From Escherichia coli (lineage in GTDB: Bacteria > Pseudomonadota > Gammaproteobacteria > Enterobacterales > Enterobacteriaceae), in the NCBI RefSeq assembly GCF_044324875.1, contig NZ_CP172185.1: DNA of 64,000 nucleotides, one strand, 5' to 3'. Positions 23,510 through 27,640 of the stretch are shown in pieces. Within the stretch, counting starts at the first letter, position 1, and every line of letters starts with the position of its first letter. The translations under genes were made by a program, and so were the position numbers. A model generated the notes under the pieces. The model was not told the origin of the DNA. It worked only from the letters and a program-made list of their open reading frames with translations, and searched no databases.

Positions 23510-24075
23510 GCGTTAGTTTCTCCACAACCAGAAGCAATCGACGCCACGACGCCCGGAGCTGCACACTCGCGGGCGTCATTACTTTCTGAAATGCAAAAAA
23601 TTTTGTAGACAAGTGCTGCATGCTCCTGCAGCTTCGAAATTGAGAGATACAGCTCGTCGTTAATTGCTGTCTTCTCATGCGGTTCCACTACACCGTCTTC
23701 GATTGCTGAACGAATCTGTTTTGAATAACTGCCGATCTGTTCAATGACTTCCAGCAGACGCTGGTTAATATCGGCGTTGTCCACATCCTCGACGTCAGGA
23801 AGAGACACAAAGACGCCATTTGCAGACTGCGCCACAGCATCAGCAATGAAATGAGTGCCACCAGCACGCTGTAAAACCATTGCCCATCCCAGCGGGAAAA
23901 TCTGATCGCCATCTGCACGAAGGCGGTTGAATAAAGCGTTTTCTGTTACATCGAGCCAGTCAGCCGCTTCAGCGTAACCACCCGGCAACGCCGCGATAGT
24001 TTTTCTGACAGCTTTCACGTACCACTCAGGCTGTTTTTCTATTTTCCAGTGATGCTTACCCACGATTAGCCTCAT
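23506..24075 (-). CDS. Putative CII-like early regulatory protein
   Basis: 189-aa ORF in the cII-equivalent position directly downstream of cro; position-based. Confidence 0.35.
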
Positions 24076-24106
24076 CGTTCTGTGGTTAAAAATTGAAAGT
24101 GTTCTG

Positions 24107-24310
24107 CTAATCTTTCGGATAGATATCCGGTCTTAAGTCAGATTTCGTAATTGCACCTGACGTGCATTGCTCAAGTTTTTTAGCCAGCACAAAACTGGCT
24201 TTTTTATAGCCATTGAAAACCAGCCGTAAGTAGCCAGGTGTTGAGCCAACTTTTCCGGCCAACTCGCCCTGCTGTTCTTTGGTTAAAGAGTCCCAATACG
24301 CTTTCATACA
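24107..24310 (-). CDS. Cro-like repressor (YdaS/Cro family HTH)
   Basis: 67-aa product from Met 24310 with C-terminal DLRPDIYP-like motif; the listed longer ORF reads through the operator region. Confidence 0.7.
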   Translation of the reverse strand, partial: CMKAYWDSLTKEQQGELAGKVGSTPGYLRLVFNGYKKASFVLAKKLEQCTSGAITKSDLRPDIYPKD

Positions 24311-24397
24311 ATATGTACCTCCGGTATACATATTACATGATTGAAATGAACCTTCAAGATACTTGTACCTTAACGGTACAAGGGTTTTAATTTCGTT
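24311..24397. promoter_or_regulatory. Immunity switch: divergent promoters with palindromic operators
   Basis: Palindromes ATGTACC-tcc-GGTATACAT (24314-24332) and CTTGTACC-ttaac-GGTACAAG (24362-24382); no Shine-Dalgarno before the cI ATG. Confidence 0.6.
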
Positions 24398-25072
24398 ATG
24401 AAAACAATCCATGACATCCGGCGGTCTAACGCCAGAAAACTGAGAGATGGTGTTGGCGGGAATTCTTCCTTTGCCACTATGATTGATCGCGAGCCAACCC
24501 AGACCAGCAGGTTTATGGGAGATGGTGCTACTAAAAATATCGGTGACAGCATGGCACGACACATCGAAAAATGTTTCGACCTGCCTGTCGGATGGCTCGA
24601 TCAAGAACACCAGACAACGAACATCACAAAAAAACCTGATGTTTCAATCACTAATAAACAAATCACATTAGTCCCTGTCATATCATGGGTACAGGCCGGA
24701 GCATGGAAAGAAGTTGGATATTCTGAGGTTGATTTGAGCACAGCAGAAACGTATCCCTGCCCTGTACCCTGTGGGGAAATGACTTATATCTTGCGGGTGA
24801 TAGGTGATTCAATGATTGATGAGTACCGCCCGGGAGACATGATTTTTGTCGATCCTGAAGTACCTGCCTGCCACGGTGACGACGTTATTGCATTGATGCA
24901 CGATACAGGTGAAACCACCTTCAAAAGGTTGATAGAAGATGGGACACAGCGTTATCTCAAAGCGTTAAACCCAAACTGGCCTGAGCCTTACATTAAGATC
25001 AACGGTAATTGCTCTATAATTGGAACTGTGATTTTCTCAGGAAAACCAAGAAGATACAAAATCAAAGCCTAA
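24398..25072 (+). CDS. CI-like repressor with HTH and LexA-like S24 peptidase domain
   Basis: 224-aa ORF; N-terminal HTH and C-terminal GDSM...K autocleavage domain. Confidence 0.85.
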   Translation: MKTIHDIRRSNARKLRDGVGGNSSFATMIDREPTQTSRFMGDGATKNIGDSMARHIEKCFDLPVGWLDQEHQTTNITKKPDVSITNKQITLVPVISWVQAGAWKEVGYSEVDLSTAETYPCPVPCGEMTYILRVIGDSMIDEYRPGDMIFVDPEVPACHGDDVIALMHDTGETTFKRLIEDGTQRYLKALNPNWPEPYIKINGNCSIIGTVIFSGKPRRYKIKA

Positions 25073-25084
25073 TCAATGTTTATG

Positions 25085-25108
25085 AACCTGCTTCGGCAGG
25101 TTTTTTTA
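25085..25108 (+). terminator. Intrinsic terminator after the repressor gene
   Basis: CCTGC-ttcg-GCAGG hairpin followed by seven T. Confidence 0.6.
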
Positions 25109-25111
25109 TAC

Positions 25112-25140
25112 TTGACAATGTACCTTTGGGATACATAATG
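25112..25140 (+). promoter_or_regulatory. pL-like promoter with overlapping operator
   Basis: TTGACA, 16-17 bp spacer containing TGTACC...GGATACA operator-like half-sites, then CATAAT. Confidence 0.55.
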
Positions 25141-25226
25141 TGCCCAAGAGAAACAACAAACAGGCAGGACGCCCACGAAGTAGCCGCCTGGAGCATATGA
25201 AGTCTAGGATGATTCGTTAGCAACAA

Positions 25227-25261
25227 AAAAGCGCCCTACAGGACGCTTAGCTCTTTAACAA
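25227..25261 (+). promoter_or_regulatory. Hairpin plus rrn-type boxA-like element in pL leader
   Basis: GC-rich hairpin 25231-25246 then GCTCTTTAACAA at 25250-25261, matching the rrn boxA core. Confidence 0.4.
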
Positions 25262-25306
25262 TCAGGTCCCCATCAACAAGTAACTGATAACTTGAGGAGG
25301 TGTGAA

Positions 25307-25513
25307 ATGCACAAAACAGAACCAAAAATCGTCGCGCCCGGATACACAAATGAGGAAATTTACGAGTGGATGGCAAAGAAGCTGGCAGCTATAAACCAGC
25401 TTCGTGAAGTGCTGTCTTATCGACAGGAAACAATAGACTCCTTAAAAAAACTGGATCAGGAAATCACGGTTTTATCACAGGATGTTACTTTAGATATTGT
25501 GCAGACAAATTAG
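25307..25513 (+). CDS. Hypothetical 68-aa protein, first gene after pL
   Basis: Strong GAGGAGG ribosome-binding site 6 nt before ATG; no arginine-rich motif. Confidence 0.5.
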   Translation: MHKTEPKIVAPGYTNEEIYEWMAKKLAAINQLREVLSYRQETIDSLKKLDQEITVLSQDVTLDIVQTN

Positions 25514-25919
25514 GATCCCATTCATTTTCGTCAAAATCATCAAAGTGATGAATTTGTGATCTCCAGTCTCGATAATCTAAAAATTTCTGGGCGGTTACGC
25601 TTATTTTATCAAGCGTGAGTTCATCCTGAATTGAAAGAAGAAGTTCATCAAATTTCATCTCATTAATCTGTTTTGGCATCCAGTGATGCTTCATCAGAAT
25701 AAGGTGAACCAGAGCTTTTTTCCCATTCAACTGATTATAGGGAGTGCCGAATTTCTTCCGGTGCTCATGTAAGACAAGGTCCAGAAGAGTAAGTAATGTT
25801 GCCCTTGATTCAACTTTGCTTATTTCGACTGATGACACTACCCCACTGATTTCAATGCCCCGATACTTTCCAACATTTTCACAGTGGGATTTGTACAGCG
25901 TATAGATATTACCGGACAT
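25485..25919 (-). CDS. Hypothetical 144-aa protein antisense to the pL operon
   Basis: AT-rich ORF with AAGGA ribosome-binding site; 3' end overlaps 25307-25513 convergently by 29 nt. Confidence 0.5.
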   Translation of the reverse strand: MSGNIYTLYKSHCENVGKYRGIEISGVVSSVEISKVESRATLLTLLDLVLHEHRKKFGTPYNQLNGKKALVHLILMKHHWMPKQINEMKFDELLLSIQDELTLDKISVTAQKFLDYRDWRSQIHHFDDFDENEWDPNLSAQYLK

Positions 25920-26070
25920 TTCTTTTCCTTTTGCGTTGTTGGGGATAACCAGATTAACCGAATCCTTGTTGTTGGGGAATAACCAGGTCCACCTCGCCTG
26001 ATGTGGCTAAAAGCAGGCACATAACAGCTAAGTATTTTCAACCAGAGAGAATCCTTAGCGTTGTGGTGAA

Positions 26071-26387
26071 TGCGGCTCAGCGCACGCGGGTTAAGGTTGA
26101 GGCTGACAGTCGACCTTCTGTGGATACCCACCCGCCTGGTGTGCAACCTTCGCCAGGCACCGGGAGGCACCCGGCACCACAACTTTATGCTGCGTGTAGT
26201 CTTGGCGGTACCAGCTTTTACCCTTGCTTCCGGCTGGTACCGTCCTTTTTACAAAACAGAGAAGAGCATTACCGGACGACGGGCTCATAACTCAATCCAT
26301 CCGGGCGGCTGCCACCGCAGGTGTTCTTCTCTGTTTTGTGGAGAAACTAATCGGCTTTGCAGGGTCGATATGATGAGGAGCAGCAAA
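26071..26387. other. GC-rich structured noncoding segment (candidate cis-acting RNA or ncRNA)
   Basis: Nested inverted repeats including a 12-bp stem GGCGGTACCAGC/GCTGGTACCGTC (26211-26251); short ORFs in several frames without ribosome-binding sites. Confidence 0.3.
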
Positions 26388-26750
26388 ATGGCTAGCGAAC
26401 GCAGTACTGATGTGCAAGCATTTATCGGGGAGCTGGACGGCGGCGTATTTGAAACCAAAATCGGCGCAGTTCTCAGTGAAGTCGCTTCCGGTGTGATGAA
26501 CACGAAAACCAAAGGTAAGGTCTCACTCAACCTGGAAATCGAACCATTTGATGAAAACCGTGTGAAAATCAAACACAAACTCTCATATGTTCGCCCGACT
26601 AACCGCGGGAAAATTTCCGAAGAAGACACCACCGAAACGCCGATGTATGTCAATCGCGGTGGTCGCCTGACTATTCTGCAGGAAGACCAGGGACAATTAC
26701 TGACTCTTGCCGGTGAACCTGACGGAAAACTCCGCGCAGCAGGTCATTAA
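26388..26750 (+). CDS. Hypothetical early-left protein (CPS-53 YfdP-like)
   Basis: 120-aa product from Met 26388 preceded by GAGGAG; the upstream in-frame extension from 26070 looks noncoding. Confidence 0.5.
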   Translation: MASERSTDVQAFIGELDGGVFETKIGAVLSEVASGVMNTKTKGKVSLNLEIEPFDENRVKIKHKLSYVRPTNRGKISEEDTTETPMYVNRGGRLTILQEDQGQLLTLAGEPDGKLRAAGH

Positions 26751-26815
26751 TATCGTTCTTAATTAACCGATTATTTATCTCATCACTGAATATCTTAATA
26801 TAGTGAGGACTTATT

Positions 26816-27640
26816 ATGTCTCAAAACTTAGACGCAACCGCATTTAATCAAATCCATGCCCTTATTTCTGCTCAGGGTGTTAATGAAATTATCAGTAAGA
26901 TTGGTGCCGATGCTGTGGCATTGCCTGAGAATTTCCGCATTCATGATCTGGAAAAATTTAATTTAAATCGCTTCCGTTTCCGTGGTGCGCTTTCCACTGC
27001 CAGCATCGATGACTTTACCCGTTATTCTAAAGATCTTGCAGATGAAGGCACCCGCTGCTTTATCGATGCTGATAATATGCGTGCCGTCAGTGTGCTTAAC
27101 CTGGGTACTATTGATGAACCAGGTCACGCAGATAACACCGCCACTCTCAAACTGAAAAAGACAGCACCGTTCTCTGCTCTGTTGTCTGTTAATGGCGAGC
27201 GTAACTCCCAGAAATCACTGGCAGAATGGATTGAAAACTGGGCCGACTACCTTGTGGGCTTTGATGCTAATGGTGACGCCATTCAGGCAACCAAAGCGGC
27301 GGCGGCTATCCGTAAAATCACAATTGAAGCGAACCAGACCGCTGATTTTGAAGATAATGACTTCAGCGGCAAACGCTCCCTGATGGAGTCTGTCGAAGCG
27401 AAGACCAAAGACATTATGCCAGTGGCATTTGAATTTAAATGCGTTCCGTTTGAAGGCCTGAAAGAACGTCCATTTAAATTACGCCTCAGCATTATCACTG
27501 GCGATCGTCCTGTACTGGTTCTGCGCATTATTCAGCTGGAAGCGGTGCAGGAAGAAATGGCTAACGAATTTCGTGATCTGCTTGTTGAGAAATTCAAAGA
27601 CAGCAAAGTAGAAACCTTTATTGGTACTTTCACCGCCTGA
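26816..27640 (+). CDS. DUF2303-type protein (YfdQ-like)
   Basis: 274-aa ORF recalled as matching E. coli CPS-53 YfdQ. Confidence 0.6.

Follow-up and report, generated by a model that had tools for sequence, protein, structure and literature searches.

Direct repeats upstream of an antisense prophage gene in Escherichia coli as a candidate promoter and leader of a portable module

The two direct repeats that lie upstream of a minus-strand gene for a 144-aa protein in a lambdoid prophage of Escherichia coli are most likely ordinary promoter-region anatomy, and not a replication or immunity element. In the window (the whole stretch of DNA that was analysed, 64,000 nucleotides long), comparison with related phage sequences supports their being a selected cis-acting element among the expression signals of this gene. 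On the same comparisons we lean towards a more specific reading, in which the repeats are a tandemly duplicated, weak sigma-70-type promoter together with the short leader of a portable module. In the sequences compared this module is conserved, holds a fixed position relative to many genes and coincides with mosaic breakpoints, and we propose that mosaic recombination has joined it to approximately ten unrelated accessory ("moron") genes. The repeats had been described in an earlier note as a regulatory element. That idea stands insofar as they appear to be a cis-acting expression element of the minus-strand gene, conserved upstream of the ribosome-binding sites of many genes, while the DnaA and repressor readings that came with it are not borne out.

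The repeat pair and its prophage setting

The basic geometry given in the earlier note, with two copies about 17 bp apart directly upstream of the ribosome-binding site of the 144-aa gene, is accurate. The repeat GGTTATTCCCCAACAAC is matched exactly at 25984-25968 and GGTTATCCCCAACAAC at 25950-25935, the copies are 17 nt apart (25967-25951), and the proximal one ends 4 nt before the Shine-Dalgarno sequence (Table 1). The likeness between the copies is wider than had been seen, reaching 5' to CTGG, and the repeat units including their flanks span approximately 34 nt, of which 25 positions are identical in the window. On the minus strand, the stretch over both repeats and upstream of the gene reads GGTGGACCTGGTTATTCCCCAACAACAAGGATTCGGTTAATCTGGTTATCCCCAACAACGCAAAAGGAAAAGAAATG. 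The best local direct-repeat score within 25920-26070 was 15, a value reached by none of 2000 dinucleotide-preserving shuffles of the same interval (mean 6.45, sd 0.97, maximum 11). The 64-kb window has exactly three occurrences of the 11-nt core TCCCCAWCAAC, namely the two repeats and one inverted copy on the plus strand (25267-25277), and the repeats are conserved in more than 60 distinct related sequences of other phages.

The window holds the immunity region of an SfIV/SfV/e14-like lambdoid prophage, and the 144-aa gene lies antisense within its early-left (pL) operon, directly downstream of the repressor gene. A third operator, TGTACCTTTGGGATACA, at 25119-25135 overlaps the predicted pL, and the leader at 25145-25225 is kept even in a Salmonella phage of different immunity. 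The cassette has a G+C content of 0.38 against 0.43-0.55 in its flanks. Rightwards of the repeats, from 25989, there is a core that is conserved in many phages, then yfdP, yfdQ and the rest of the early-left operon. An Rfam scan of 24000-27500 placed no family over the repeats; adjoining them it gave a weak DicF-like match and, at 26042-26253, a match to STnc100 whose 42.8 bits fall short of the gathering score of 47.

Table 1. Features in and around the repeat region, in window coordinates
Feature	Position	Strand	Basis or remark
cro	ends near 24310	-	immunity region
oR operators, TGTACC-N5-GGTACA dyads	24314 and 24364		sequence search
cI	24398-25072	+	followed by a terminator at 25084-25103
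Predicted pL, TTGACA-16-CATAAT	25112-25139	+	strong promoter-like; points rightwards, convergent through the cassette
Terminator-like hairpin and T-run	25229-25248	-	would end a minus-strand transcript
rrn-like boxA, GCTCTTTAACAAT	25250-25262	+	5' of the inverted repeat copy
Inverted, degenerate third repeat copy, TCCCCATCAACAAG	25267-25280	+	far end of the cassette; only in some lineages
Small convergent ORF, 68 aa from ATG	25307-25513	+	alternative TTG start at 25292
144-aa gene, ECs1072 family of phage-associated proteins	25485-25919	-	NCBIfam NF033230, E 1.7e-46; phrog_5286
Shine-Dalgarno AAGGA of the 144-aa gene	25926-25930	-	sequence; ATG at 25919
Proximal repeat, CTGGTTATCCCCAACAAC (unit 2)	25935-25952	-	predicted start at about 25946-25944
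Predicted -10, TAATCT, between the repeats	25951-25956	-	position-weight-matrix scan
Distal repeat, CTGGTTATTCCCCAACAAC	25968-25986	-	core of unit 1 (about 25993-25960); conserved in all aligned lineages
Predicted -35, TTCCCC, inside the distal repeat	25974-25979	-	position-weight-matrix scan
Two interleaved stems adjoining the distal repeat upstream	25989-26018		covariation of helix A and helix B

The structural model of the 144-aa protein is all-helical and confident (pLDDT 91), and a fold search with it returned no match to a PDB fold. The 3' end of the small plus-strand ORF overlaps the gene by 29 bp. In eight contexts, ECs1072-family genes have beside them a small ORF homologous to this one (22-70% identity), and P6, I8, W21, K25 and A28 are invariant among these homologues. 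The prototype of the family, ECs1072 of O157 Sakai (Sp4 prophage), is a distant homologue of the 144-aa gene and lies antisense in a rightward operon, between a cII-like gene and a replication gene. It carries just one repeat unit, TATAATCTGTGGTTCCCAATCGACAG, in which the hexamer at the homologous position is a perfect TATAAT, and its -10 site reads TATAATCTG. In a microarray study of growth transitions in O157:H7 Sakai, ECs1072 was down 2.1-fold at one transition (PMC2241611). In K-12, ymfI-ymfJ of e14, whose position is homologous to that of the window's 144-aa gene and small plus-strand ORF, is listed as a convergent overlapping transcript pair (PMC12288877). By analogy, both observations are consistent with transcription of such genes in culture.

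Distribution of the module and its cargo genes

In megablast comparisons with phages and 5,426 E. coli genomes, homology to the window begins at discrete points, namely 25935, 25949, 25989 or further right. For the PhiR29 group it begins at 25935, with both repeats kept and a different minus-strand gene, and for SfV and e14 it begins at 25989, without the repeats. In SfV, e14, PhiR29 and SfIV, different inserts lie between the conserved pL leader to the left and the conserved core, from 25989, to the right. Searching with a short query brought up the repeat pair in phages of Klebsiella, Salmonella and Enterobacter and of the HK639 type. Viral contigs were then scanned for TGTTGGGGA-N20-28-TGTTGGGGA, which gave at least 120 stretches and, once unrelated tandem arrays had been removed, at least 116 module instances representing at least some 63 distinct module sequences. 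The module is hosted by lambdoid prophages of E. coli, Shigella, Salmonella, Klebsiella and Enterobacter with unrelated repressors, and is present in thousands of E. coli, Shigella, Salmonella and Klebsiella genomes.

The element consists of two copies of the core TCCCCAACA spaced 32-35 bp apart, and in all cassettes 6-9 nt separate the core from the Shine-Dalgarno. Among the matches listed, every element stands directly upstream of a same-strand Shine-Dalgarno and ATG, and the cargo clusters into four large unrelated families and several singletons, approximately ten unrelated small genes. These include the ECs1072 family, a 73-76-aa Zn-ribbon protein (in HK639 it overlaps HK639_45, which is probably mis-called), a protein of about 170 aa beginning MIAEL (phrog_1244), proteins of 78, 83, 97 and 75 aa, and proline-rich peptides of about 30 aa, as well as others. 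The Zn-ribbon family weakly matches the PADLOC defence candidate PDC-M14A (E 6e-6).

Because the core 9-mer belonged to the search pattern used for the viral contigs, the invariance of the core in the motif-collected set is partly an artefact. Samples collected by protein are free of this effect. A Zn-ribbon sample gathered by protein and not by motif has the same module, and the core variants seen in protein-collected samples are CCCCCAACAG, CCTCAACAG, CCCCAATAAC and TTCCACAG. Among near-identical cassettes the divergence is too shallow to separate conservation of the repeats from that of the spacer. Some ECs1072 and Zn-ribbon members, and other minus-strand genes at this position such as e14 ymfI, are preceded by another type of sequence that lacks the repeats. 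No description of the module turned up in word searches of open-access text, and a motif search returned unrelated primers alone.

The predicted promoter and competing readings

In gene orientation, the aligned module runs from helices A and B through (G/C)YTATTCCCCAACA(A/G)C, AAG(G/A)AWTCG and NT-TAATCT, then 4-7 nt, TCCCCAACA, 6-9 nt, the Shine-Dalgarno, about 7 nt and the ATG. A position-weight-matrix scan of 25 diverse module sequences ranked TTCCCC-N16-18-TAnnnT among the top three candidates in 24 of them and at the top in 18, and this is the sole -35/-10 pair common to nearly all aligned lineages. At the same position other lineages have TACTCT, TAAAAT, TATTAT or TATAAT as the -10; in lineage L069 the hexamer is CAATCT, and its pair did not rank among the best, and the -10 candidate of the variant lineage L361 is without the A at -11. 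The window's own candidate, TTCCCC-17-TAATCT, has A-11 and T-7. A generic promoter scan left it below threshold and did not call it, since both hexamers match at only three of six positions. The spacing from -35 to -10 is fixed; the distance from the -10 to the proximal core varies (4-7 nt), as does that from copy to copy (32-35 bp). Other single repeat units directly follow a -10-like hexamer or a terminator. Conservation of the core (TCCCCAACA and flanks) spans more positions than a -35 hexamer requires.

From this arrangement we infer promoter activity, a start site, a leader function and interference from pL. The distal unit would supply the -35 hexamer TTCCCC, and the stretch between the cores the -10 TAATCT. 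Given these two hexamers, the predicted start falls at the proximal repeat, whose core would be the 5' end of an unstructured, C/A-rich leader of about 25 nt running into the Shine-Dalgarno. In the lysogen, where pL is repressed, the weak module promoter would transcribe the 144-aa gene, and the transcript would end at the hairpin and T-run at 25248-25229. Upon induction, strong convergent pL transcription through the cassette and its promoter would silence the gene, through transcriptional interference and antisense pairing. The antisense position within the pL operon thus leads us to expect expression in the prophage and silencing after induction, and convergent pL, rather than a dedicated regulator, would most likely be the source of conditional expression.

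The two halves of the element appear to share an origin. In the window, unit 1 is GGTGGACCTGGTTATTCCCCAACAACAAGGATTC and unit 2 is GGTTAATCTGGTTAT-CCCCAACAACGCAAAAGGAA; against the 25 of 34 positions that these share, the units of eight other lineages share 19-23 (19-25 over all examined). The counterpart in unit 1 of unit 2's -10 reads GGACCT or GATCCT. Where there is no duplication (e14 ymfI, SfV, and the Serratia and Enterobacter ECs1072 homologues), TATGCT, TATCCT or TATCTT stands there, with a -35-like TTCACC or TTGACC 16 bp upstream of the -10-like hexamer. For ymfI of K-12 this single-unit promoter is predicted to have its -10, TATGCT, at NC_000913.3 1,201,456-1,201,461 and to start near 1,201,466-1,201,470 on the plus strand. 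The simplest reading of these alignments is a tandem duplication, of approximately 34 bp, of a "-10 plus initial transcribed sequence". After such a duplication the upstream -10 would have decayed, and the upstream core would have landed at the -35 of the downstream promoter. The copies also seem to change together: both copies carry TTCCACAG(N)CAA in L358 and L361, where they are spaced by the same 33 bp, CAACAG in the HK639 type and CAACAAAAA in L070. To judge from the alignments, this fits gene conversion or repeated duplication of adjacent units; a common trans-acting partner would also fit. No anti-motif or partner sequence was found near the variant modules of L358 and L361.

Shuffled versions of the minus-strand RNA covering 25920-26022 fold better than the RNA itself (z = +1.56), and RNAalifold found neither conserved pairs nor a consensus structure in the repeats. 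On these results a structured RNA in the repeats was rejected, and they fit an open, C/A-rich leader. An unstructured C/A-rich tract lies 6-9 nt from the Shine-Dalgarno in all cassettes, as would be expected of a C/A-rich enhancer or small-RNA target. The sequence upstream of the distal repeat behaves differently. In helix A, 26018-26014 pairs with 26000-25996; pairing is kept in 99%, with compensatory changes at three of the five pairs. None of 500 shuffles reached the observed covariation, which fell from 0.176 to 0.05 or below in slid controls. RNAalifold predicts helix A unaided; thermodynamically, the stems do no better than shuffles. In helix B, 26006-26003 pairs with 25992-25989, and covariation is seen there too when offsets in the alignment are taken into account; in L070 helix B and a U-run form an obvious gene-strand terminator. 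An automatic genome-wide search to assign the strand of the hairpins produced too many false positives. The covariation of helix A implies that some RNA, of one strand or the other, runs through the sequence upstream of the repeats. Should this be the gene-strand RNA, transcription would truly begin further upstream and the leader would contain both repeats.

This last possibility can be extended into a reading, to our minds quite unlikely, in which transcription starts upstream of 25990 and both repeats act in the RNA as C/A-rich single-stranded elements, each with an AAGGA-like tract; candidate roles would be a translational enhancer, a ribosome stand-by site, or a target of Hfq or of a GcvB-type, G/U-rich small RNA. 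The lack of structure, the build of each unit (a core, then a Shine-Dalgarno-like AAGGA) and the constant 6-9 nt from core to Shine-Dalgarno all agree with it, although the HK639-type distal unit is without the GGA, and the stretch complementary to GcvB, about 7 nt at best, is not conserved. That the helices act on the gene strand is thinly favoured by three G-U wobbles (one in helix A and two in helix B, counted by eye) against one for the opposite strand, and in an alternative type of upstream region a homologous C/A-rich core lies in a stem loop with two compensatory pairs (GCUGG/CCAGC versus CUUGG/CCAAG). However, there is no conserved promoter candidate upstream of helix A, where the sequence differs wholly between contexts, and several contexts have, within 12-20 nt upstream of it, an opposite-strand terminator or the beginning of a divergent gene. 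The conserved TAnnnT between the repeats is also left unexplained. A trans-acting regulator that binds the cores as paired DNA sites, at the -35 and at the start, and switches the gene on or off is likewise unlikely in our estimation. Such a factor could be encoded by the host, or by the phage outside its immunity region, and could act on top of the promoter that we propose. It would explain why an asymmetric core of 9-13 nt is conserved in both copies when lineage spacers have diverged by 30-40%, why the conserved span exceeds a -35 hexamer and why the copies of L358, L361, L070 and the HK639 type share their variants; the poor -35 also resembles that of activator-dependent promoters. Yet the spacing of the copies varies between 32 and 35 bp, so helical phasing is not kept, and the sites have no dyad symmetry. 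Outside the module the core occurs at chance level, in 19 contexts against about 17 expected in approximately 2.3 Mb of related phage DNA, and some ECs1072 and Zn-ribbon members, as well as e14 ymfI, are served by upstream regions free of the repeats. No regulator gene co-occurs with the module. The cI types found with it are unrelated, and a CP76-type CII gene is present in some cases and absent in others; in L013, L015, L034 and L035, the longer contigs of the HK639 type, a cI-like gene was detected and no CP76 relative. Recent tandem duplication with gene conversion accounts for the joint change of the copies without any binding factor. To our knowledge none of sigma-54, -32, -28 and -E, nor PhoB, PmrA, CsgD, RcnR or similar proteins, fits the conserved positions. 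The broader form of this idea, that the TCCCCAACA cores are sites for a trans-acting host protein, phage protein or small RNA governing a "moron regulon", we consider equally doubtful. If it were true, the factor would co-ordinate many unrelated accessory genes of the lambdoid prophages of Enterobacteriaceae, and the joint change of the copies (TTCCACAG twice) would reflect co-evolution with it.

Far less probable are roles for the repeats in replication (as DnaA boxes or iterons), in immunity (as operators of the prophage repressor) or in recombination (as sites for inversion or cassette exchange). In favour of the DnaA-box-like reading of the earlier note, the proximal TTATCCCCA does match the DnaA consensus TTATNCACA at eight of nine positions, but its TTAT half is specific to this variant and not conserved in relatives, which have GATATCCCCA, AATCTCCCCA and CTATTCCCCA. 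The conserved block TCCCCAACA lies mostly outside the DnaA consensus, and the distal copy, TTATTCCCC(A), is interrupted by an extra T and fits TTATNCACA poorly. Iterons, which come as three or more tandem repeats of 17-22 bp within or beside a replication gene or an A+T-rich origin, were rejected since there are just two direct copies and the replication genes are distant, lying beyond cro/cII on the homologous SfIV map. The suggestion that a prophage repressor binds here is not supported either: the operators at 24314, 24364 and 25119 are dyads and the repeats have none, and a search of 25920-26070 for TGTACC-N5-GGTACA found no match even at three mismatches. Moreover, the cI genes next to the module are of at least five unrelated types, their identity to the window's cI being 100%, about 87%, about 41%, about 35% or undetectable, which means that the module is not an immunity operator. 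For recombination sites one can cite the third, inverted copy at the opposite end of the cassette and the mosaic breakpoints that fall at the repeats. The inverted copy, however, is missing in most lineages, a synthetic inversion junction had no match of at least 80% coverage in 5,426 complete E. coli genomes, and breakpoints at conserved flanks are expected from ordinary homologous recombination and selection.

Relation to known prophage systems

The duplicated promoter and leader that we favour can be set beside several known systems. Morons of lambdoid phages are autonomous promoter-gene-terminator units, as exemplified by lom and bor of lambda and gene 15 of HK97. Like them, the window gene is small, low in G+C and inserted between sequences that are contiguous in relatives, and it comes with a predicted promoter and a terminator-like site and is probably expressed in the prophage. 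The insertion between conserved flanks, the terminator-like site at 25248-25229 and the deviant G+C are thus all found here, and in these respects the element resembles a moron's promoter end. Unlike morons, one promoter-leader, itself a tandem duplication, is common to approximately ten unrelated cargo genes, and the window gene is antisense inside the early operon; in the ECs1072 case it is also paired with a convergent small ORF. The pairing resembles the ymfI-ymfJ excludon of e14 in that the two genes overlap at their 3' ends, and differs in that the e14 pair has the alternative upstream region without repeats.

The region downstream of the lambdoid repressor gene is a hotspot for exclusion, defence and fitness factors expressed in the lysogen. 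Lysogen-expressed exclusion genes between cI and the pL operon include rexAB of lambda, with pLIT, and sieB of lambda and P22. The window gene shares with these its niche just downstream of the repressor gene and the variability of the cargo. Genes of the rexAB/sieB type are co-directional with cI or pL, whereas the orientation of the window gene differs, and no sequence similarity to their promoters was seen. At the CII-dependent promoters of lambda (pRE, pI and paQ), direct TTGC-N6-TTGC repeats straddle a poor -35. A weak -35, direct repeats and a position antisense to the early operon are features in common with the module. Its repeats, in contrast, are 32-35 bp apart, at the -35 and +1, and not 10 bp apart around the -35; TTGC-N6-TTGC is absent from either strand of the repeat-region sequence, and the module also occurs in contigs in which no CP76-type CII relative was detected. 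Known translational enhancers and GcvB targets include C/A-rich elements that precede ribosome-binding sites, and the module is similarly C/A-rich, unstructured and 6-9 nt upstream of the Shine-Dalgarno, but its distal copy is probably outside the transcript and its complementarity to GcvB is short. A comparison of putL of HK639 with the window's conserved pL leader gave no convincing alignment.

The less usual aspects of the finding are the reuse of one promoter-leader over several genera and its antisense placement in an early operon, as in the window and in Sakai Sp4. The module provides a simple sequence tag with which to find cargo genes, several of which are unannotated or mis-annotated, and it yields a testable model in which such a gene would be expressed in the lysogen and shut off on induction.

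A convergent partner of the ECs1072-family gene

The ECs1072-family gene (144 aa in the window) was accompanied every time by a small convergent ORF of ~60-90 aa with the motif EPxI.A.G..[DE]E..(E/Q)WM..K..A, the two overlapping at the 3' end of the partner (in the window and in the related phage and prophage loci L037, L057, L092, L288-L292 and L293 39150-39816). The pair was seen in E. coli, E. albertii, Serratia and Enterobacter, and the partner is also found, unannotated, in the O157 Sakai prophage Sp4. The two genes are a conserved two-gene module. The predicted structure of the 144-aa protein is all-helical and confident (pLDDT 91), and a PDB fold search with this model gave no match.

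In HK639 (locus L007), the corresponding cargo is a conserved gene of the Zn-ribbon family (MQTMRTVCPDCGSE...), to which the annotated HK639_45 lies antisense and is probably a mis-call. In PADLOC, the Zn-ribbon family has a weak match (E 6e-6) to PDC-M14A, a defence candidate. Salmonella phage F1055 (L006, ~2640-2680) carries a T-arm-like sequence, GGTTCGATTCC, at the place equivalent to the HK639 tRNA-Ile gene.

Features of the window and of HK639 (L007)
Feature	Coordinates	Strand	Remark
pL leader	25145-25262 (incl. boxA)	+	conserved
Small convergent ORF	25307-25513	+	3' end overlaps ECs1072-family gene
ECs1072-family gene	25485-25919	-	144 aa
ORFs across non-coding core	25838-26182	-	
	26003-26290	+	
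	26070-26750	+	
Helix A (GCCUG/CAGGC) and helix B (CCAC/GUGG)	25989-26018		directly 5' of distal repeat
STnc100-like element	26042-26253	+	
Long inverted repeat	26251-26339		18-nt arms, 94% complementary; 53-nt loop
HK639_45	L007 2175-2522	+	annotated
Zn-ribbon gene	L007 2253-2474	-	73 aa
tRNA-Ile gene	L007 2608-2677	+	just downstream of two-repeat module

RNA elements of the non-coding core and the pL leader

The core contains a match to STnc100, a prophage small RNA family that a 2026 preprint ties to the PasD small RNAs; at 42.8 bits (E 3e-7) this match stays below the gathering score of 47. The match bears a DicF-like hairpin at its 3' side, and in its 5' portion, GAATCCTTAGCGTTGTGGTGAAT, the repeat region recurs a third time, in degenerate form and on the plus strand (repeat search, D8 and D11). 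Between this element and the start of yfdP, which is likely the ATG at 26388, sits the long inverted repeat, and this could be a terminator, an attenuator or a processing stem. ORFs spanning the core are annotated as SfIV_34 and SfIV_35, and as ymfH in K-12 (e14). Such ORFs overlap the promoter module as well as the STnc100-like element, and they are probably spurious.

Helices A and B are interleaved and both covary, and in HK639-type, L069, L070, L350 and L356 contexts their structure is kept while their sequence is not. The pL leader stem also covaries, differing by phage (CCUGG/CCAGG, CCCGG/CCGGG, CCGG/CCGG); downstream of the leader comes an almost perfect boxA of the rrn type, GCTCTTTAACAAT. 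The leader may be a cis-acting antitermination or processing element; it gave no convincing alignment with the annotated putL of HK639.

Upstream regions that lack the repeats

L004 (e14), L288-L291 and the L296 group have another type of upstream region, which consists of a single unit and lacks the repeats: GGTGG-TATGCT-GG-TAGTTCTCACACAG-CCAGC-AAGG. It is homologous to ~25935-25990 of the window. Between lineages its stem differs by two compensatory pairs (GCUGG/CCAGC versus CUUGG/CCAAG), and the genes behind it include some of the same families (ECs1072, Zn-ribbon) together with e14 ymfI. The Zn-ribbon cassette of L357 (~1120-1165) carries, 5' of its ribosome-binding site, a perfect 11-bp palindrome, ATATCCTTACA-N13-TGTAAGGATAT, in place of the repeats. 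Because this palindrome looks like a classical operator, cassettes at the position equivalent to that in the window may be regulated differently from one another.
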